DNA of 64,000 nucleotides from Desulfatiglandales bacterium (GTDB lineage Bacteria > Desulfobacterota > DSM-4660 > Desulfatiglandales > Desulfatiglandaceae). Every line of letters starts with the position of its first letter. Position 1 is the stretch's first letter. This document shows, one piece after another, positions 29,171 through 38,655 of this stretch. The DNA is taken from positions 5,856,001-5,920,000 of the forward strand of contig OY759599.1 of assembly GCA_963662465.1 (NCBI GenBank), given 5' to 3'. Made by a program: the position numbers and the translations under genes. Under the pieces are notes generated by a model that was not told the origin of the DNA, ran no database searches, and was given only the letters and a program-made list of their open reading frames with translations.

Positions 29171-29459
29171 TCACAGCAGGCGCCTGCGATGTATTTTTAT
29201 GGTAAACCCTCATGGCAAGGGGGTTTGCCACCCTGCGGATGAAAATGGCGGCAGAACCCATAGCCCATCTCCTATGGCCTATCGCCTGTTTTCATGGAAA
29301 AAATCCGGAAGGTTTTCGATCCGCCTCTTGACAGGTAGTTTTCGATATCTCCTCCGGCAAATTTTTGGTCCCCGAAACCCTGACAACCCGTCCGGGAGAG
29401 CGGGACTGGTGTGAATCACGACCGTTGGAGAGTATCCTCGTTCTTACGCACTACACTCC

Positions 29460-29488
29460 CTCGTTCCCACGCTCTGCGTGGGAACGAG
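29460..29488. repeat. REP-like hairpin (degenerate relatives near 30150-30300)
   Basis: CTCGTTCCCACGC-TCT-GCGTGGGAACGAG. Confidence 0.75.
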
Positions 29489-29966: not shown

Positions 29967-30431
29967 GATATGCCCTCCTATTAGACGTTCAATATCAAAA
30001 ATACGCATATTATACAGCCCGCATACACCATACCATTTATCTTTTTCGATAATAATTTCATGTCGGCTTTCAACCGGCAAATCATAATGAGCCTCAGAGA
30101 AAAAGCCGGAAATTAGCAATTCTCATTTTGGAATTACGATCTCCTCATTCTGGTTCACACGCTCTATGTTGGAATCCGCCTCTGGTCTATCTGTGTCTAA
30201 GCCATGAATATACCCAATTTAAACCAGTGTTTTTCGAGTTTTCCGCAGGACGCGGAGCGTCCCAAAACTATTCCCACATTAGAACGTATGAACGAGAGCG
30301 AAAGCCAAGTCCTAATGAGAATTCCTAATTAAATATTTCGCAGAAAATAAAAACATTGACCTTGTGTTTTTCCATCAAATAATTTACAAAATACAGATTT
30401 CAGGGGGAGATTGGTTCGATTTTGTCGGATA

Positions 30432-30486: not shown

Positions 30487-30579
30487 TTGCGACACGATGT
30501 CGCATAGTTTGAGTGTATTCATGTAGTTACATGTAGTACCCGGTATGTTCCTACCGGACCCTACGCAGGCATGCTGCCG

Positions 30580-31276
30580 TTGCGCTGATGACGGGGTGTG
30601 AAGCCCTGCGGACAACGTACCGAATCGGGTTCAAATGGCGACAGGAGAACCCCTCCGGGAATCCTCCCCGGTTAAGGGCTAGGGTCGGATGATATGGTGA
30701 AGGTATCTGAATGTCTTTAAGCGTCGATTACAAGCGAAGGACCTACGAGGATTAATAGATCTTATGCCGCTGCCCAGTGTCAGCGGATGTGGTCAGGTTG
30801 CAGGTCTGTCAACTGCCTGCACGGAACTGTTATACCACCGGCGTAGAGGGCGCACCTAAGTCATCCATTGGATCAACTATGTGGAACGTGGAAACCCGGT
30901 CCCGTCGCCCCTTTTGGGGGCAGGCTAACCGCAAGGCATGCTGTTGGCGGGCCGGAGTAGGAGGCTGAAAAAAGCGAATGCCGGGCCGTAATGGTCCGGA
31001 TACCGGGTGAAACATTCCCGGCTCCGTAAGGAGGCAGACGTTCAGCGCGGTGCCCGATCACGTGAACACCGGAGGAATCAGATGAAAGCGGGGAAAGCAG
31101 CCAGTGAAACGGGCGAATGACGGCCCTTGAGGCTGGTGCGCCCCGTGCGCCTTTGGCTATTCTGACAGCTGGCCTGTAACGTGAAGTGGATGCAAATCTG
31201 CGGGAATCCCCACCAGGGAAACCTTTTCGGGGGCTTGAGCCACGTGAGGTGAAAGTCTCATGCGTGGTTCTGAGGG
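30580..31276 (+). ncRNA. ORF-less group II intron, domains I-V (5' boundary approximate)
   Basis: TTGCG candidate start; canonical 34-nt domain V GAGCCACGTGAGGTGAAAGTCTCATGCGTGGTTC at 31237-31270 (AGC triad, GAAA loop, 2-nt bulge); no RT ORF. Confidence 0.85.
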
Positions 31277-31306
31277 TAATAGCGGCATAATACACACCTC
31301 CGTACG

Positions 31307-33394
31307 TTATTGAAAATTAAAGACTTGTTGTTTTGAGTTTCTTGAAAGCGGGCTCTTTGGAAGCCCGGAATGAGCTGCCTTTTTTATCACTTCAGATTCA
31401 AGGTCCTTTTTTGAAATGATCCATGGAGCACCGGAACATACTCGCTTGGCGGGTAGAATCTCATGTTGTATAAGTCTCCAAACTTTGGTGCTGCCAATAC
31501 CCAGCCTTTCGCTTGCTTCAGCTACCGTATATTCTTCTCGTCGCTGCCTCTCTCCTTCATGATATACAGGGATATTATGCCTATTTCGAAATGAACGCAA
31601 CCTTACCGGATTCCAGGTATATCCCTTTGTAGTCTTTGTACCCACACGGTTGAGAAAGGCCACGATGTGTTTATCAGGCATAATTCTAGCCAAATCGGAT
31701 ATTATCTTTTTTGTATCAACATCGGTTTTCAATGGGTAACTGGAAGACTTATTCTTCAGTACCTCCAATTCCGTATGCTCACCCCCTTCCCAGTGAATGA
31801 TTAATTTGATCTTTTGCTCTTCCAAATAAACAACGATCTCTTTGATAACCGTCCGGATTATACGCTTCTTTAAATCCAAAGAGCAACACGGATCATTCCA
31901 TACACGAGGTAAATCTTGTGACAGATCTCTGATCTCGGTCTCTTCCTCAGGGGAAAGCGAAGGGGTGTTCGACCCCATAGCGGTAATCTCATTCTCCAAT
32001 CTTGCTACCTTAACAAGAGCGTCATTCCAATCCTTCTCCAATGTAGATGCTACCAAACGATTATCAGGGTCCACTGCATTGTATTGACGTTTTGCCCGTA
32101 AAGCTTCATAACGCGCTTGTTCCAACTCCAGTTCCCGTTGCCGTTTCACTGAATCCGATTCATGGTTGATTTTCTTTATCGCCTCTAAAGAAGCTTCTAA
32201 TCCTATCGGTGATAATACTTTCAAAAGAAAATCCGTAACAGCCCGGTCAACACGGAATCCACCAAATGATATACACGCCTTTCCTGTCTCGTTACCTCGT
32301 TTGCGGCTACACTCATAACGTTTATGAGTTCCATTACGGCCTTGGTATCGTACAATTAACTTTCTACCGCAATGACCGCATCTTAACAAACCTCCAAGCA
32401 ATGCCTTTCCTCCGCGAACAGCTCCTCTCACCACCGGCCTTTTCTTATTTGTATTTTGAGTTAGTATCTCCATGTTATACTGGTACTCTTCCCATGTGAT
32501 GTAACCTTCATGGTGATCCAATATTAAAACGTCCCAATCCTTTTGTTCCTTACGAATACCCTTCCTCAGTCGCTTGCGCCCATTTTCAAAAGTTACCTCT
32601 GTTTTAGTCCGGCCATAGACGTAGGCGCCGGCGTAAATTGGGTTGTTCACTATATGCGACAAGGTATGAGCAGACGGTAGTTTCCACTCTATCCTACGTT
32701 CCCCTTTACCGCTGGAAACAACAGCAATCTCAATCTGTTCATCTAAAAACCAATGATACACCCGACGAAGAGTACCATATTCCTTGAATTTCGTGAATAC
32801 CAAATCAATGACTTCTTGAATTCGTTTGTCAGGATTCTTTTTCAGCTTATTATCCCTAGTCTTTATATAGGCTGCCGGTACAGTAAGATATAATTCTCCC
32901 CGCTTCGCTTTTTGTTGTATTGCCGCCTGAGAACGCTCCTTTAATAGGCTCAATTCCATTGCACTCATTTCTCCCTTTAAGCCCAGGAGCAAACGATCAT
33001 TTGACACGTTTAGGTCATAAACAGCTCCTTGATCTACAAGAACCGTTTTTTTAAGTGCACAGATCTCAAGCAACGTATGCCACTCTCGACCGTTGCGGGC
33101 CAACCTCGATGATTCAATCGAGAAAATACCCCCTATTCTTCCTTCACACACAGATGAAAGAAGATTCTGGAATCCTTTTCTGTCAACGCATCCCGATGCA
33201 GTTATTCCCAAATCACTATCTATCATCCATATGTTTTTCTCGTTCCATCCTAATTCTTTTGCCCTTTCTACCAAGCCATATTGTAAAAGTTGGCTTTCAC
33301 GATGCTGTAGAACTTGGCCCGGTGTTGACTGACGGATATATATACATGCTTCCCGACTAATATGTTCAGCATTGATTTTATTGCTCATGCTCAT
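31307..33394 (-). CDS. Large serine recombinase with C-terminal HTH extension
   Basis: YIRQS catalytic motif, SRLARN, NPIYAGAYVYGR recombinase domain, LLRCGHCG zinc ribbon, coiled coil, terminal YTVAEASERLGI HTH. Confidence 0.95.
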   Translation of the reverse strand: MSMSNKINAEHISREACIYIRQSTPGQVLQHRESQLLQYGLVERAKELGWNEKNIWMIDSDLGITASGCVDRKGFQNLLSSVCEGRIGGIFSIESSRLARNGREWHTLLEICALKKTVLVDQGAVYDLNVSNDRLLLGLKGEMSAMELSLLKERSQAAIQQKAKRGELYLTVPAAYIKTRDNKLKKNPDKRIQEVIDLVFTKFKEYGTLRRVYHWFLDEQIEIAVVSSGKGERRIEWKLPSAHTLSHIVNNPIYAGAYVYGRTKTEVTFENGRKRLRKGIRKEQKDWDVLILDHHEGYITWEEYQYNMEILTQNTNKKRPVVRGAVRGGKALLGGLLRCGHCGRKLIVRYQGRNGTHKRYECSRKRGNETGKACISFGGFRVDRAVTDFLLKVLSPIGLEASLEAIKKINHESDSVKRQRELELEQARYEALRAKRQYNAVDPDNRLVASTLEKDWNDALVKVARLENEITAMGSNTPSLSPEEETEIRDLSQDLPRVWNDPCCSLDLKKRIIRTVIKEIVVYLEEQKIKLIIHWEGGEHTELEVLKNKSSSYPLKTDVDTKKIISDLARIMPDKHIVAFLNRVGTKTTKGYTWNPVRLRSFRNRHNIPVYHEGERQRREEYTVAEASERLGIGSTKVWRLIQHEILPAKRVCSGAPWIISKKDLESEVIKKAAHSGLPKSPLSRNSKQQVFNFQ

Positions 33395-33411
33395 TTCCAC
33401 CTTTCTTTTCT

Positions 33412-33968
33412 CGAAATGTCAACCGAAAATTGACCTCTTGCGACAACCGAATTTTGCCCCCACATGAGTAATTGTAACCTGCGACGCGGTCATAGAAGGC
33501 TCCGGTGGCTCCTGCCGAAATATCCATTAAAAGAGCGACCATAACCGCACCTTAGTCAGCTTCCGACCAGATAATCATCTGGTAAGTCGAGAAAACCCTT
33601 TTTCGTCGCTAATTCGAGTTCAATCAAATACCCTATCTCGCCTTTCATTTTGATCTGTGAAACCATCCACTTCGGTAACCGAATCGTGACGGGGATACGC
33701 CTCAGATGTTCAGGACTCCTTTTTCGACCAGCGCCTTTTCGACTCCCACCTCTCATTTTCATCGCTCCTTTTCACCTTCAAATTCGTCCAATATTTTTGA
33801 ATACCGCGTACGTTTTTCAATTAAACACCTATTTCTATCGGAAAATAAGCTATTTATGATTTATAGTTACGATTTTTCTGAGTCGGATTAAGCTGCTTGC
33901 TTCAACAACTCCAGTCTCTTGACTGCTTCCAATATCAGACCGCGATTTTACGTTAGTGAAACTACTTC
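33412..33968. mobile_element. Probable 557-bp secondary insertion (IS21-like remnant)
   Basis: 8-bp direct repeat TCTTTTCT at 33404-33411 and 33969-33976; left end has tandem CAACCGAAAATTGACC/CAACCGAATTTTGCCC motifs. Confidence 0.5.
33556..33762 (-). CDS. Small basic putative DNA-binding protein (RHH/BrnA-like)
   Basis: RGGSRKGAGRK...VTIRLPKWM; close paralog at 36261-36458. Confidence 0.7.
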   Translation of the reverse strand: MKMRGGSRKGAGRKRSPEHLRRIPVTIRLPKWMVSQIKMKGEIGYLIELELATKKGFLDLPDDYLVGS

Positions 33969-34123
33969 TCTTTTCTATTTCTGTTACCCTCAGAATTTTG
34001 CCAGAAACCTGACAGAAGCTCTGCAAGGAAATCAATCAATCTATTTCGTGTTTCTATTGGAATTTCGATCGGTGATGGTAAATAATCCCAAAGCCGAAGT
34101 TGATGATATTTTTGTTTCGTCAT
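33962..34123 (-). CDS. Small accessory ORF of the recombinase element
   Basis: GGAGG RBS before MTKQKYHQLRLW; lies upstream of the recombinase. Confidence 0.6.
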   Translation of the reverse strand: MTKQKYHQLRLWDYLPSPIEIPIETRNRLIDFLAELLSGFWQNSEGNRNRKEK

Positions 34124-34442
34124 CTTTCCTCCTTGTTTTCGAATTGACTTCATCAGGAGGAAACGGTATTTTTCTATTCACTATTAAGCAATATAAATTC
34201 TTAAGCGCCCTGATTTCGATAGCGGGTTTTGAGCCGAGGGATATCTTTTCATACTTTGGATTGGTCATCCACGCAGGTATCAATTCATGGCGACCATCAG
34301 GTTTCTTTGTTACAAAACAAGTTTCTCCACGATGGTTTCTGGTACCTACCACATAAATTTCTTCACCGGTTCTTGGGTGAAATGGGTAATATACCCAAGT
34401 TATAAACTGGTTTTGATGGGCATTATATAGTGGTTCTGAGGG
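34041..34442 (-). CDS. Y4bD/DUF5372-like accessory gene lacking its start in the integrated state
   Basis: Frame open from the att core: PSEPLYNAHQNQFITWVYYPFHPRTG...LIPAWMT; start codon and RBS lie at 31286-31301. Confidence 0.7.
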   Translation of the reverse strand, partial: PSEPLYNAHQNQFITWVYYPFHPRTGEEIYVVGTRNHRGETCFVTKKPDGRHELIPAWMTNPKYEKISLGSKPAIEIRALKNLYCLIVNRKIPFPPDEVNSKTRRKDDETKISSTSALGLFTITDRNSNRNTK

Positions 34443-34477
34443 GGCTCGGGGATGGCAACATCCCCCGGCTACCCGGC
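34443..34477 (+). ncRNA. Group II intron domain VI and 3' end
   Basis: Hairpin GGGGATG-GCAA-CATCCCC, bulged A in CTACCCGGC. Confidence 0.85.
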
Positions 34478-34782: not shown

Positions 34783-35999
34783 AGGGAATTCCCAAGAAAT
34801 AAACTACCCAACTCCAGATTCAATAAGTACATCCCATTTGGGCAGTGTGTCGGAACGTTTAATTCTGTTTTCGTAAGGTTTCATTTCTTTTTTTGTAAGC
34901 CGGATTCCCTTCTTATATGCCTTTTCCACCAACGTGACAATGGGCTTTATCCCTTTCCATGTCATCGTAGATGCCCAATTGACTGCTTTTGATATTGAAT
35001 CCAATATTTCTCCGTTCCAATGTCCCTCCAATATTCCCCAACATCTTTCAACCGGATTGTACTTACTATGATAGGGAGGATAATAAACCAGGCGGATTCG
35101 CAAACCTGTTTTGTCACTGAATTCGGTCATTCTGCGAATGAATTGAGTCCGACCGCTTGCTGAATTCGGACCATTGTCAAGATTGATAACCAACTCGTTT
35201 ATATGAAGATAGGTAATTCTGTTTTTTTCCCACCACATCTCTAAACAGTCAACGATGAAATCACTTGTTTCAAAAGATGTGCCGAAAAAAATAGAAAGCA
35301 TTCCGCTCAAAACGTCAAGAATACCGTACGGAACCAATTTCATTTCGGGATTCATATCATGGTCTTCAGCTTTCTTCGCTTCCCGATCCCGTGACTTTCC
35401 GTTTCTTGAGAACTCGCCTATATTCACTTTTGCCTTGGCATCAATAGAAATCCGATGAGAGTTGGGATTCTCATCAGAGTCACGGTTTGCCTTCCATACA
35501 TTTTCAAATATTTCATCGACCTGTTTTATCTTTTTCGCAGGTTTGGATTTCAGGACTCGTTTCAGGTTGTATCCCATGCGGTTCAACATGTTGATCAGAG
35601 TGTTGTTAGAGGGAAGATCCTCACCGTCGTATCCTTTCTCATCAATCAGTGCCTTTTTGAGAGCTTTTCCTGTAATTCTTGTATATGTGATAGAGCTTTT
35701 CATGGCAGGGTCCGCCTGAGTTTGAGGTTCTGCAAGGGATATTATGTCTGCTTTAATACCGGGAATCGTGTCTTCTGTTTTCTTTTTTCCCCGTCCCTCA
35801 AAATTATCCATGCATCTGATCCCGCTTTCGGCTTCTTTAAGGCCTTTTGTTACACACTCTCTCCCCCATCCCATCTCCCGTTCAGCTTTGTATGCACTCC
35901 CGTTGAAATATTTCCTGGTAATGTCGGCCTGATATGCTCTTCTTTTGTAACCAGTCAGTCGTCTGCATGCATCTTTTATCAGATTTTTTGTTTCTCCGT
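34783..35999 (-). mobile_element. ISAzo13-family element, 5'-truncated (transposase 34804 to about 35999)
   Basis: ISIDAKAKV, INLDNGP, YYPPYHSKYNPVERCW; AGGGAATTCCCAAGAAATAA end; 5' end replaced by the IS21-like IR. Confidence 0.85.
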
Positions 36000-36260
36000 C
36001 TTGGGCGCTAACCAAAATGGAACCAGTTTTGCTACTCCAAACGGAACCAGATATTGCGCACTGGTCTTTTCCTTTTAGAAGGGTTTTCTTGTAAATTTGT
36101 TAGAGGTTGCATGAAAGAGTATATCAGATGGTATTTTAAAAATGCTGGTGAGACACGTAGCGTTCTGGTTGAAGAATCAGTGATGAGGATACCATCAATA
36201 TGGTGATGGCAGAGAAGAGGGGATTAGATTTTTCGGTTAAGGGCAATGCTTATTGAGGAA

Positions 36261-36458
36261 CTATTTGTCTATGTCATAGTCGTCCGGTAAATTCAGGAGG
36301 CCTCCCTTCGCCAATTGATCCTCAATCAAATATCCAATTTCCCCGTTTTTTTTCAGCTGTAGAATCATCCATTTGGGGAGACGAATGGTGAGCAGTTCAC
36401 GTCTCAAATGTTCCGGTTTCTTTCTTCGGCCGGCGCCTACCCGTTTTCCACCTCTCAT
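36261..36458 (-). CDS. Small basic putative DNA-binding protein (RHH/BrnA-like)
   Basis: MRGGKRVGAGRRKKPEHLRRELLTIRLPKWM; paralog of 33556-33762. Confidence 0.7.
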   Translation of the reverse strand: MRGGKRVGAGRRKKPEHLRRELLTIRLPKWMILQLKKNGEIGYLIEDQLAKGGLLNLPDDYDIDK

Positions 36459-36556
36459 TTCAAGCTCCAAGACAAGGTAATTTCTGATATTCGTGTAACG
36501 AGATTCAAACAGACCGGTGATATTCAGACCTCAAAACCGGCCCTTTGGCGAACATC

Positions 36557-37276
36557 TCATTTTCTGAGGGAAGGACCATCAATATGAATGTTGATGCAGC
36601 GATGGTTGAGACGATCCAGCAAGGCATCGACCATGTCCTTTGGTTCAAGCAGCGAATACCATTGTTCAGGTTGAAGATTGGTCGTAATAATTGTGGACCG
36701 ACCGGCTTCATAGCGATCTTTCATGAGTTTAAAAAAGGCGTTCATCTGCTCTTTTTTGAGGGTCAGGTATCCCAGTTCATCGAGCAGAAGCAGGTCATAT
36801 CTGCAAAGGGCATTGAGGAGTTTCGGGGTGGACCGATCTGCCAAAGACGCATAGAGCTGATCCAGCAAATCCTGAACATTATAAAAACGCCCCCGGTACC
36901 CGGCAATAATGGCTTGACGAAGGATCCCCACGGCCAATCCCGTTTTGCCGACGCCGGTTTTTCCATGGAACACGATGTTTTCTCTTCGGCTGATAAAGTC
37001 AAGGCCGGACAACGTCATGATCCGGCTCTTCTGTATTCCCGGCTGAAGATCAAACGGAAAGGAGTTGAGGGTCCATTCCCATGGAAGCTTTGCAATCTGG
37101 ACCCGATAGATCATGCTGCGCTCCTGCCGGAAACGTAATTCCTCAGCCAGGAGATTGTAGATGACCTCGTGAATGGAAAAACCGTTCTTTTCAGCCGAAG
37201 CCAACTGTTCTTCGAGAGCCTTCAGCATGCCTTTAAACTTCAAATCAATGAGTAACTGTTCAATTTTCTTTTTCAT
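36557..37276 (-). CDS. istB: IS21 helper ATPase
   Basis: GKTGVGKT, LLLDELGY, TTN, ALLDRL. Confidence 0.93.
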   Translation of the reverse strand: MKKKIEQLLIDLKFKGMLKALEEQLASAEKNGFSIHEVIYNLLAEELRFRQERSMIYRVQIAKLPWEWTLNSFPFDLQPGIQKSRIMTLSGLDFISRRENIVFHGKTGVGKTGLAVGILRQAIIAGYRGRFYNVQDLLDQLYASLADRSTPKLLNALCRYDLLLLDELGYLTLKKEQMNAFFKLMKDRYEAGRSTIITTNLQPEQWYSLLEPKDMVDALLDRLNHRCINIHIDGPSLRK

Positions 37277-38655
37277 AGATCAAAAAAGTCTCCCGCGATA
37301 TAATCGAGAATAATGTTTTCCAGACGCGACAAATCAAAAAGTCCATATTTAAGCGCCTGTGTTATGGCTTTCAAAAAAGGTTCCCCGGGATAAGTGCGTT
37401 TCAGATGAAGCAACCGACGTAACTTGACCACACCGCGACCGTGACTTCTTTTCTTCAGTTCAGCCACATACTCATCCAGGATGGCATCCTCTCCCGTCAA
37501 CAGCTGTTCTTCTTTTGAAGGGATTCGGGGATCTTTTTTTCTTCGAATGGGAACATGGTGACCGGGCAGGGTTGTTCGGGTGTTGCGTTTATCCAGTATG
37601 CGGTCATGTTCCGCCACTTTTGTGTTTTTGTCGTAAACGATGACCTTGAGCCAATGTTTCTGTACTTCCAGGGAGTTCCCAATCAGCGCTTCAGGGACTG
37701 AATAGCGGTTGGTGTCCAAGTGCACATATCCCTGAACATCGGCTACCCTGTGTTCTGCCACATAGACTGGCGGCTGGTATGCCGGTAAATCAATGAGATA
37801 TGGCTTTTCAATGACATAGGCCTCATCCGGCGTCATCCCTAAAGCCCGTTTAAACTTTTTATCGCTTGTATTCCGGCACCAGTCGATTGCCTGCCGGTTC
37901 AAATCCTGCCAGCTAACAAATGTTCTACCGGGAAGAAAATTGTTTTCCACAAAATGAAAAGGCCTTTCCACACGAGCACTTCGATTGGCGTCTCCTACAG
38001 CATGGGCCTCAAACCGGGTTCCATACATATCGCCGAAGTATTTCATTTCAGGCGCAATCAATGCATCAGGCCCGGTGCCGCCGGCCACAATAACATTGGT
38101 GTTGTCAACCATGCACCGGGAACACACCCCGTCCATAAACTCGAATGCTTTTTTTAGGAAAACCTTGCACTCAAACCGGGTAAAACAGGGGTAATACTGA
38201 ATAAAAATCCTTCGGCAAAAGGCCAGGGTCAGGGACGCGCACTGGGTCGACATTTTTTTCCCATTAATGACAACCAGATGGGGTGACGTATCATGCTGCA
38301 TCTCCTGACCGGGTTTAAAATGGTATTGGCCCGCCCGTCTTTTTTTACGTTCCCGGATCTCGTACTTTCTCATAATCCAGGTCAGACTCTGATAAGGGAT
38401 TTTGATCTGTTGGCGGCTTTCCAGTTCCTCGGCTACTCGCACGGCATTTCCTTTACATTCCTTGAAAAGCTCGCGGATCAACGGGACATGTTCTTCATAC
38501 CGGGAGTTCCTTTGGGGTACCGCCTCTTCGTCATGATCATCTAAAACCTTCGTGACGGTATTGCGACCGGCCTTCAGGGTTTTGGCGATGTCGCGCAAAC
38601 TCATGCCGGTTTTTTTCAATTCCACAATGGCATCTTTTTTGGATTGTCGGATCAT
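37273..38655 (-). CDS. istA: IS21 transposase
   Basis: N-terminal HTH, PGQEMQHD, VDN, VERPF DDE motifs, NRYSVP. Confidence 0.92.
   Translation of the reverse strand: MIRQSKKDAIVELKKTGMSLRDIAKTLKAGRNTVTKVLDDHDEEAVPQRNSRYEEHVPLIRELFKECKGNAVRVAEELESRQQIKIPYQSLTWIMRKYEIRERKKRRAGQYHFKPGQEMQHDTSPHLVVINGKKMSTQCASLTLAFCRRIFIQYYPCFTRFECKVFLKKAFEFMDGVCSRCMVDNTNVIVAGGTGPDALIAPEMKYFGDMYGTRFEAHAVGDANRSARVERPFHFVENNFLPGRTFVSWQDLNRQAIDWCRNTSDKKFKRALGMTPDEAYVIEKPYLIDLPAYQPPVYVAEHRVADVQGYVHLDTNRYSVPEALIGNSLEVQKHWLKVIVYDKNTKVAEHDRILDKRNTRTTLPGHHVPIRRKKDPRIPSKEEQLLTGEDAILDEYVAELKKRSHGRGVVKLRRLLHLKRTYPGEPFLKAITQALKYGLFDLSRLENIILDYIAGDFFDL

Follow-up and report, generated by a model that had tools for sequence, protein, structure and literature searches.

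A serine recombinase element at the junction of domains V and VI of group II introns

Introduction

What is a serine recombinase gene doing inside the catalytic core of a ribozyme, and how did it come to lie there? In a 64,000-nucleotide stretch of the genome of a Desulfatiglandales bacterium (GenBank assembly GCA_963662465.1, contig OY759599.1, positions 5,856,001 to 5,920,000; hereafter the window), a group II intron on the plus strand runs as far as its domain V (DV) hairpin and is then interrupted by DNA encoding a large serine recombinase (LSR), beyond which domain VI (DVI) and the intron 3′ end appear. An earlier note, made from the sequence alone, had proposed that the interrupting DNA is a 3166-bp element that uses conserved ribozyme DNA as its bacterial attachment site (attB). 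DV is the most conserved segment of group II introns, and an intron-rich genome therefore offers many harmless landing sites of this kind. The proposal is supported by six copies of the element at DV/DVI junctions, by their presence in two intron families, and by a clade of related recombinases that is associated with DV. We put at roughly 0.88 the probability that the interval is a small, cargo-poor integrative element moved by its LSR, with an attB consisting of the DNA of the DV 3′ strand, the linker between DV and DVI (J5/6), and the DVI 5′ strand of group II introns.

Results

Structure of the interrupted intron

The interruption is defined by the following features, given in window coordinates, which are used throughout unless genome coordinates are specified.

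30487–31276, plus strand: 5′ part of the group II intron (domain I to DV, J5/6 linker, and first 3 nt of DVI), lacking an open reading frame (ORF); from alignment and Rfam
31237–31270, plus strand: DV, the 34-nt catalytic hairpin; from RF00029 and RF04357 matches and fold
31264–31276: attL copy of the core, made up of 7 nt from the DV 3′ end, the TGA linker, and the GGG that opens DVI
31277–34429, minus strand: element interior, 3153 bp, present in seven copies at 98.8–99.8% identity
31307–33400, minus strand: LSR gene, encoding 697 amino acids from a GTG start or 693 from the ATG at 33388; from Pfam
34430–34442: attR copy, the second copy of the 13-bp core
34440–34474, plus strand: DVI, with a bulged A near 34471, followed by the intron 3′ end at 34477; from fold and copy comparison

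Both direct reading and an Rfam search (RF00029) confirm that the DV at 31237–31270 is not followed directly by DVI. The hairpin fits the DV consensus, scoring 45.8 bits against RF00029 (gathering score 40) and 36.7 bits against RF04357, which is under that model's gathering score of 53, and the "DVI" half of the RF00029 match at this occupied site is a weak 4-bp stem lying within element DNA. The reappearance of DVI and the intron 3′ end past the insert also stands, with DVI set at 34440–34474 and the intron end at 34477, the point at which seven copies split into different downstream flanks. As had been noticed earlier, the same 13-mer, GTGGTTCTGAGGG, occurs at both ends of the insert (31264–31276 and 34430–34442). 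With a spacing of 3166 between the repeats, the element spans 31277–34442, or 3166 bp including one copy of the core. Deletion of one repeat and the interval in silico gives a contiguous DV, 3-nt linker, DVI hairpin with a bulged base, and 3-nt tail that fold at −40.6 kcal/mol, compared to −20.7 kcal/mol for an equal-length sequence that reads into the element instead. The restored DV-DVI is identical to a natural empty copy in 75 of 79 aligned columns, and in the folds of both the DVI carries a bulged branch-point A 7 to 8 nt from the 3′ end.

The 5′ portion of the intron contains a full-model match to RF02012 (group-II-D1D4-7) at 30539–30679 with a score of 78.1 bits. Its 5′ boundary at 30487 is the position where nine copies begin to align. 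The 5′ end reads TTGCGAC, and the motif GUGYG is absent from all nine aligned copies, each of which starts with TTGCG as a variant 5′ end. No intron-encoded reverse transcriptase is found in domain IV, and the ~560 nt between the D1-D4 match and DV (30680 to 31237) leave no space for one, so that the host intron, at 823 nt without the insert and with no reverse transcriptase ORF, is an ORF-less derivative.

The 3.15-kb insert encodes, as the earlier note had read, a large serine recombinase. Its 697-residue ORF contains a catalytic Resolvase domain (PF00239, E = 7e-19, residues 19–169), a Recombinase domain (PF07508, E = 2.6e-12), and a zinc ribbon (Zn_ribbon_recom, PF13408, E = 2.9e-8), with an HTH_17 domain at the C terminus. 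The catalytic block Y17-R19-Q20-S21 (Y-x-R-Q-S) is unchanged in 16 homologues. A sequence search of the LSR against the PDB gave a sole, weak match, to 3G13 (E = 3.2e-4).

Copies of the element in the same genome

The source genome is assembled as one contig of 8.16 Mb, in which the 3.15-kb interval occurs seven times at 98.8–99.8% identity, with six copies uninterrupted and one split by a 2850-bp insertion. The LSR is intact at 697 amino acids in all six uninterrupted copies, the other five differing from the window copy by 4 to 10 amino acids, and all of the small ORFs are kept. Six of the seven copies lie at one identical point, after DV and before DVI. The sequence past the intron 3′ end differs in every case, which identifies six separate intron insertions. 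Five of the six host introns belong to the family of the window's intron. The sixth (genome 4984148–4987303) belongs to another family: its DV is clearly different, and similarity in domain I is limited to an 87-nt patch. At this copy the left junction retains the host's ...ACGG while the right junction carries the element's ...GTGG, the pattern predicted for an exchange between attB and the element's own attachment site (attP) within the 11-mer GGTTCTGAGGG; the copy in a different intron family thereby places the crossover inside the shared core.

The earlier note had called for a search for empty sites and for the excised circle; the first part of that search succeeded, and the second is taken up below. 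Two introns of the same family are empty, with a single core and an uninterrupted DV-DVI (genome 3334730–3334808 and 3354006–3354082), and score 57.2 and 67.5 bits against RF00029 compared to 45.8 bits for the occupied ones. The 11-mer GGTTCTGAGGG occurs 21 times in the 8.16 Mb: at the 12 junctions of six elements, in the two empty introns, and at seven non-intron positions. Of the 8 intron junctions that have the exact core, elements occupy 6, compared to none of the 7 non-intron 11-mers, a distribution that shows the junction pattern is not due to chance. RF00029 matches the genome 49 times, 42 of them above cut-off, and the corresponding DV/DVI junctions represent ~20 sequence types. No element follows any DV whose junction departs from the exact core, and near-misses that differ by one base are empty.

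These copies might instead have arisen from a single ancestral insertion, after which the composite of intron and element spread by retrohoming and copy number reflects intron mobility. The five copies in one intron family, whose introns are 95–98.6% identical, and the clear multiplication of ORF-less introns in this genome fit such a history. Yet the copy in a different intron family already largely refutes it, and empty and occupied introns are interleaved. The elements are also more alike than the introns that carry them (98.8–99.8% compared to 95.2–98.6% identity). They are mosaic, with 46 variable columns of 3156, and their kinship is discordant with that of the introns: the nearest kin of the window intron is at 3.323 Mb, whereas the element carried there has the window element among its least similar copies (98.9%). 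A 3.2-kb insert at J5/6 should, moreover, hinder the splicing on which retrohoming depends. With the several intron families and many DV sequences found beside related elements in metagenomes (below), co-mobilization cannot explain either those loci or the copy in the different family, and we consider spread by retrohoming very unlikely.

Related elements at other domain V sequences

LSR homologues with the same four domains number in the thousands, with 7999 of 8000 scored candidates at E ≤ 0.001. The closest are 63–88% identical and mostly lie on contigs of 2–4 kb, as expected for an element that is a repeat. A metagenome scan gave 39 loci, and species-representative genomes added one close relative, L099. 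The informative set comprises 29 close loci (LSR 70–85% identical) in which the contig holds the 3′ end of the LSR gene and some flank. In 19 of these, the LSR-proximal flank contains the whole DV hairpin, encoded on the opposite strand ~40 nt past the LSR stop codon and ending 7–12 nt before the conserved end of the element. In a further four only the DV 3′ strand is present before the contig ends, in one the DV 3′ half is joined to unrelated sequence, and in five there is no DV. Three of these five share a single sequence, in which a D1D4-6 intron match lies at a distance of 240 nt. The Rfam scan of homologue flanks suggested by the earlier note detects DV at E ≤ 0.01 in 15 of the 29; close homologues are not found scattered among unrelated sites. 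Farther along this strand there are D1-D4 matches to three families (D1D4-2, -6, and -7), and the DV sequences are of many different kinds.

Four contigs from relatives hold both junctions, with repeated cores of 8 to 10 bp (TCTGAGGGG, ATCTGTGGGG, TCTGTGGGA, and CTGAGGGG), a DVI hairpin after the distal junction, and a repeat spacing, equivalent to the element length, of 2.6 kb. Relatives with differing cores (TCTGTGGGG and TCTTAGG) are also found at DV/DVI, and junctions where host and element differ limit the exchange to a common TCTG. A search of 30 relatives of the source genome produced any match in only 7 and a full copy in none. One truncated copy, from a genome of the same genus, is 98% identical and terminates in the core, after which comes a DVI of a further type; the remaining matches are short or weak.

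These data bear on whether the recombinase reads no more than a short generic motif present in DV by coincidence, with introns as its commonest carriers and no specialization. The brevity of the shared core (8–13 bp), the copy with a non-intron flank described below, and the 5 of 29 relatives that lack DV would all be compatible with a generic motif. However, such a motif does not account for the occupancy of 6 of 8 intron cores and 0 of 7 non-intron ones, for intron junctions that are one core base off being empty, or for relatives with different cores that are still at DV/DVI. The explanation is accordingly very improbable, and recognition of the DV/DVI junction itself is preferred.

Near-identical sequence was found by word matching in 20 rows from 9 studies, including contigs from RNA libraries, which are no proof of transcription. 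Most of the element is covered by contigs from four other public runs (two labeled by organism, one marine metagenome, and one metatranscriptome); these contigs bridge its left and right junctions and show it beside further DV variants. An artefact of assembly, with chimeric junctions, might be suspected where repeats of this type often break assemblies and many relatives are on 2–4 kb contigs. The same junctions nevertheless occur at six intron-borne copies in a single-contig genome, on independent metagenome contigs, and on the bridging contigs of other runs, which makes the likelihood of an artefact negligible and removes the doubt that the earlier note had raised about the junctions.

A gene divided between the two ends of the element

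On the minus strand, the element carries a DUF5372-like ORF, ORF63, ORF68, and the LSR gene, in that order. In addition to the LSR gene, its coding features are:

31286–31301, minus strand: GGAGG and ATG, separated by an 8-nt spacer, at the LSR-proximal end; conserved at that end in relatives
33556–33762, minus strand: ORF68, encoding a small basic protein, with 64% identity to a small ORF (36261–36470) of an IS21-type element
33962–34153, minus strand: ORF63, a small ORF that is conserved and, in relatives, immediately precedes the LSR gene
34041–34430, minus strand: body of the DUF5372-like gene, with conserved coding sequence running to the att core and a first in-element start at GTG 34352

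Conservation of the DUF5372-like coding region at the protein level reaches the att core in 22 relatives. In the integrated element, the ATG at 31301–31286 reads outward (MPLLPSEP...) into the intron, and the frame from this ATG into the DUF5372-like gene is continuous only when both ends are joined through one core, as in a reconstructed circle. Because the ribosome-binding site (RBS) and ATG lie at the opposite end of the element, the DUF5372-like gene is whole only in an excised circle. A GAGG...ATG motif is seen at this end of the element in the majority of distant relatives as well.

The protein matches PF17342 with E = 4.5e-4 and 20.6 bits, below the gathering cut-off of 25, and protein-atlas features match at 0.93 to clusters in which 12–61% of members have DUF5372. 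The protein resembles the DUF5372 family at a level below the membership cut-off. An AlphaFold model predicts with confidence an SH3/Tudor-like barrel (residues 9–52, pLDDT ~90) and one helix, and comparison of this model with the PDB gave no match at E ≤ 0.001 (best 0.03). A predicted complex of the LSR and the DUF5372-like protein scores 0.63, compared to 0.01 for the best control; a mark of 0.63 is reached by 116 of 157 solved complexes and by 2 of 215 mismatched pairs. The prediction runs agree in at least 77% of contacts, and pLDDT for the partner is at least 69. The predicted contacts are on the LSR zinc ribbon (337–343), residues 391–404, and residues 478–540, the region where directionality factors act on LSRs. 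The modeling supports binding of the DUF5372-like protein to the LSR. The protein may promote integration, block re-excision, or do something else.

ORF63 has tblastn matches in 27 relatives, with 41–61% identity. ORF68 is limited to the version of the element in this genome, where it forms the bulk of an extra 0.56 kb; it was not found in relatives and has ~35 paralogous segments in the genome. Its 64% identity to the IS21-element ORF makes it one small gene common to two unrelated mobile elements.

Insertion targets of the wider recombinase family

Beyond the close relatives, at least 601 relatives were confirmed, and the 80 best species-representative loci, with LSRs mostly 37–53% identical, were used to define targets. 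Among these 80, DV adjoins the element only at L099 and, aberrantly, at L041. Stop-free stretches touching the LSR-proximal junction were translated and scanned with Pfam (170 of 181 stretches covered). Sixty-six loci had a usable flank, from which four mis-delimited ones that matched the LSR's own HTH_17 were removed to leave 62. At 41 of the 62, the abutting gene fragment comes from a mobile-element gene: IstB_IS21 (17), DDE_Tnp_IS66 (5), IS66 Orf2 (2), IS91-type genes with Y2_Tnp or Zn_Tnp_IS91 (4), DDE_Tnp_1 (4), rve or rve_3 (3), Phage_integrase (2), and DDE_Tnp_1_4, IS110, DUF772, and Resolvase (1 each). One of the remaining fragments is from a hydrolase-like gene, and 20 have no Pfam match, nine of which, by eye, share the C terminus of a tyrosine recombinase whose gene lies ahead of an IS91 transposase gene.

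Within each class the break point is fixed. It falls at profile position 100–103 of 238 in 16 of 17 IstB loci, at 282–283 of 284 in 5 of 5 IS66 loci, and at 168–170 of 200 in 4 of 4 DDE_Tnp_1 loci. The remainder of istB (profile ~97 to 238) lies across the element on the same strand in all 12 IstB loci tested (57 of 66 stretches covered), so that these genes are split by the element and not merely adjacent to it. In one uncultured Alphaproteobacteria contig (L079, 1101–5471), a member of the family interrupts the resolvase domain of another LSR gene, with a Resolvase fragment on one side and the Recombinase domain and zinc ribbon on the other, and the LSR family therefore also targets itself. 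In a FastTree phylogeny of 94 LSRs (midpoint root, Shimodaira-Hasegawa-like support only), the DV-associated LSRs form one clade of 23 rows with support of 100. IS91-linked, IS66, and DDE_Tnp_1 targets likewise cluster. Target labels change 28 times on this tree, compared to 61.8 for shuffled labels, with 0 of 200 shuffles as low.

It is probable, in our judgment, that these loci belong to a large undescribed family of 2.5–3.2 kb "parasite-of-parasite" elements, each consisting of an LSR, a DUF5372-like partner, and a small ORF. Each clade would be specialized on the most conserved DNA of a different selfish element, and all would sense their own state by means of a gene that is whole only in the circle. 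The targets proposed as part of this joint claim are the intron DV/DVI junction, istB of IS21 at its Walker A codons, the IS66 transposase at its C-terminal motif, DDE transposases of IS4/5 type at their YREK-region motif, and the IS91-linked recombinase at its catalytic-tyrosine region.

The breadth of the family also bears on whether the element is a host-domesticated switch or anti-intron device that reversibly silences or regulates introns, as opposed to a selfish element. Insertion should inactivate introns, and developmental excision of serine-recombinase cassettes from genes is known (the sigK skin element; PMC5025042). A device serving the host is, however, difficult to reconcile with elements that are multi-copy and patchily distributed, with no full copy in the 30 relatives searched, and with a wider family that hits transposase genes in many phyla. 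The host introns here are ORF-less and located in non-coding attC-like sites, and silencing them brings no obvious gain. We consider a host switch highly unlikely and retain the interpretation of a selfish integrative element.

Surroundings of the intron

Most ORF-less intron copies are directly 3′ of ~90-nt imperfect inverted repeats that resemble integron attC sites (genome 3.31–3.36 Mb and flanks), and one is directly after the DVI of another intron, forming tandem introns. Upstream of the window's intron there are perfect and imperfect hairpin-like repeats at about 29440–29480 (e.g. around 29445–29476) and 30140–30310. A 34-nt stretch of the intron (31090–31123) is found with 100% identity at five or more other loci that are otherwise unlike the intron, and may be a retained hairpin common to full-length introns.

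The region around the intron 3′ flank is a pile-up of mobile elements, with the following neighbors.

34804–36015, minus strand: DDE transposase of ISAzo13 type (PF07592, E = 3.6e-82), starting ~330 nt past the intron 3′ end
36261–38655, minus strand: IS21-family element ~2 kb from the LSR element, with IstA-like (37273–38655), IstB (36557–37276), and a third small ORF (36261–36470)

The 2850-bp insertion that splits one copy of the element lies within its LSR gene (genome 3315896–3318745), and a second full copy of this insertion is at genome 2503313–2506162. At the split copy there are consequently four nested layers: attC-like site, intron, LSR element, and insertion.

Discussion

Proposed mechanism

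In the mechanism we propose, conservative recombination between the two core copies, catalyzed by the LSR, would release the element in circular form. Circularization would join the RBS and ATG of one end to the DUF5372-like gene of the other, so that the operon of DUF5372-like gene, ORF63, and LSR gene would be complete and expressed only in the free circular form. The LSR, probably aided by the DUF5372-like protein, would then recombine attP with the DV/DVI junction of another intron, with crossover within the shared TCTG of the core. Integration would place 3.2 kb between DV and DVI and should cripple the host intron in both its splicing and its retromobility. Current knowledge of the DV-J5/6-DVI core implies that 3.2 kb of foreign DNA at J5/6 would disable the ribozyme, although hydrolytic 5′ cleavage by domains I to V alone may still be possible with the insert present. 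The element may be active at present.

Several observations weigh against this interpretation. The first is the seventh copy (genome 6823248–6826403), whose distal flank is a DVI from another intron family and whose proximal flank falls in the middle of an IS91-like gene, of which at least four other copies are uninterrupted. No single att exchange accounts for the letters at this copy. Microhomology deletion and integration at a pseudo-site were considered and neither fits them; the copy would most likely be the product of recombination between two element copies with different flanks. The second is the group of 5 relatives among 29 that have no DV. Third, none of the 21 core occurrences in the assembly has an attP context, no back-joint is present in the contigs of the four public runs, where contigs cannot show rare forms, and the 30 relatives of the source genome include no orthologous pair of empty and occupied sites. 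With neither a circle junction nor a polymorphic site seen, we infer the mobility of the element. Contig joints that skip 3166 or 3168 bases correspond to empty introns that may stem from other loci, and show neither excision nor its absence. Fourth, conservative cut-and-paste leaves seven copies unexplained; the usual answers to such a rise in copy number are replication-coupled transposition and transfer between genome copies. Purifying selection on the LSR together with gene conversion could also blur the comparison of elements with introns. Finally, a scan for promoters and terminators performed at chance level, with 6 promoter-like sites compared to 6.3 expected.

Implications

The locus indicates that a DNA recombinase can evolve recognition of the gene for a ribozyme catalytic core, turning a conserved RNA structure into a multi-copy integration site. 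It also displays the layering of mobile elements in this genome, where an attC site carries an ORF-less intron, which carries an LSR element and, in one case, a further insertion sequence. The split start codon offers a simple model of state-dependent expression. The family supplies natural LSRs with defined long targets and a candidate accessory protein, relevant to directionality control and to genome-engineering toolkits, and suggests a natural route by which introns and insertion sequences are inactivated. If the proposal of a parasite-of-parasite family is correct, the conserved catalytic cores of mobile elements are public landing pads, and elements of this type may be natural inactivators of introns and insertion sequences.

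Comparison with known systems

In the open full-text literature (subscription journals and supplements being outside its scope), we found no earlier account of group II introns or transposase motifs as targets of an LSR element, and the term "DUF5372" was absent from the full texts searched. The passages covered of an LSR survey (PMC10083194) name no intron or transposase-motif targets.

The ORF-less host introns, which mostly follow attC-like hairpins, resemble group IIC-attC introns and their ORF-less derivatives, a likeness of the intron and not of the element. Twintrons and group II introns interrupted by insertion sequences are similar in having one mobile element nested within a group II intron. 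Twintrons arise by retrohoming of one intron into another, mostly at sites set by exon- and intron-binding sequences (EBS/IBS). Unlike in twintrons, the invader described here is a DNA recombinase element, always located at J5/6 and always antisense to the intron.

The large serine integrases of phages and integrative conjugative elements (ICEs), such as phiC31 and Bxb1, share the domain set of Resolvase, Recombinase, and zinc ribbon. According to a recent survey, these enzymes catalyze an attP × attB exchange that leaves the core repeated at attL and attR, with the target in conserved sequence (Durrant et al. 2022, PMC10083194). In contrast to phage and ICE integrases, the recombinase described here has as its target a part of another selfish element that is itself present many times per genome, and it is carried on 3.2 kb without phage or conjugation genes.

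The closest parallels in overall organization are the clostridial transposons Tn4451/Tn4453 (TnpX) and Tn5397 (TndX), which are likewise small, depend on an LSR alone, leave as a circle (a step that we infer for the present element), and have a short duplicated core. Features of Tn4451/Tn5397-type transposons that are found here include direct core repeats with single-core empty sites, and several independent insertions in one genome. Such transposons carry resistance cargo and use short, loosely defined targets. The present element differs in being nearly cargo-free, in using one defined point in a ribozyme gene, and in having an LSR with a C-terminal HTH_17 domain and a DUF5372-like partner. 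In Tn4451, the circle junction is reported to form the promoter for tnpX (Lyras & Rood 2000, pmid 11069682, cited in PMC13023037). Similarly, the circle junction of the present element would place an RBS and ATG ahead of the gene that opens the LSR operon.

Other systems also divide a signal or gene between the ends of an element. Junction promoters are known in IS911, IS30, and IS21, and SSV-type viruses have a split integrase gene; as in these cases, expression here would differ between the integrated and circular forms because a signal or gene is split. Unlike in SSV, where the integrase gene is split, the recombinase ORF here stays whole; what is detached is the translation start of the operon's leading gene, an accessory one. 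The element is therefore of a known kind, an integrative or transposable element driven by an LSR, and what is new is its target, the family habit of striking the cores of selfish elements, and the split start.

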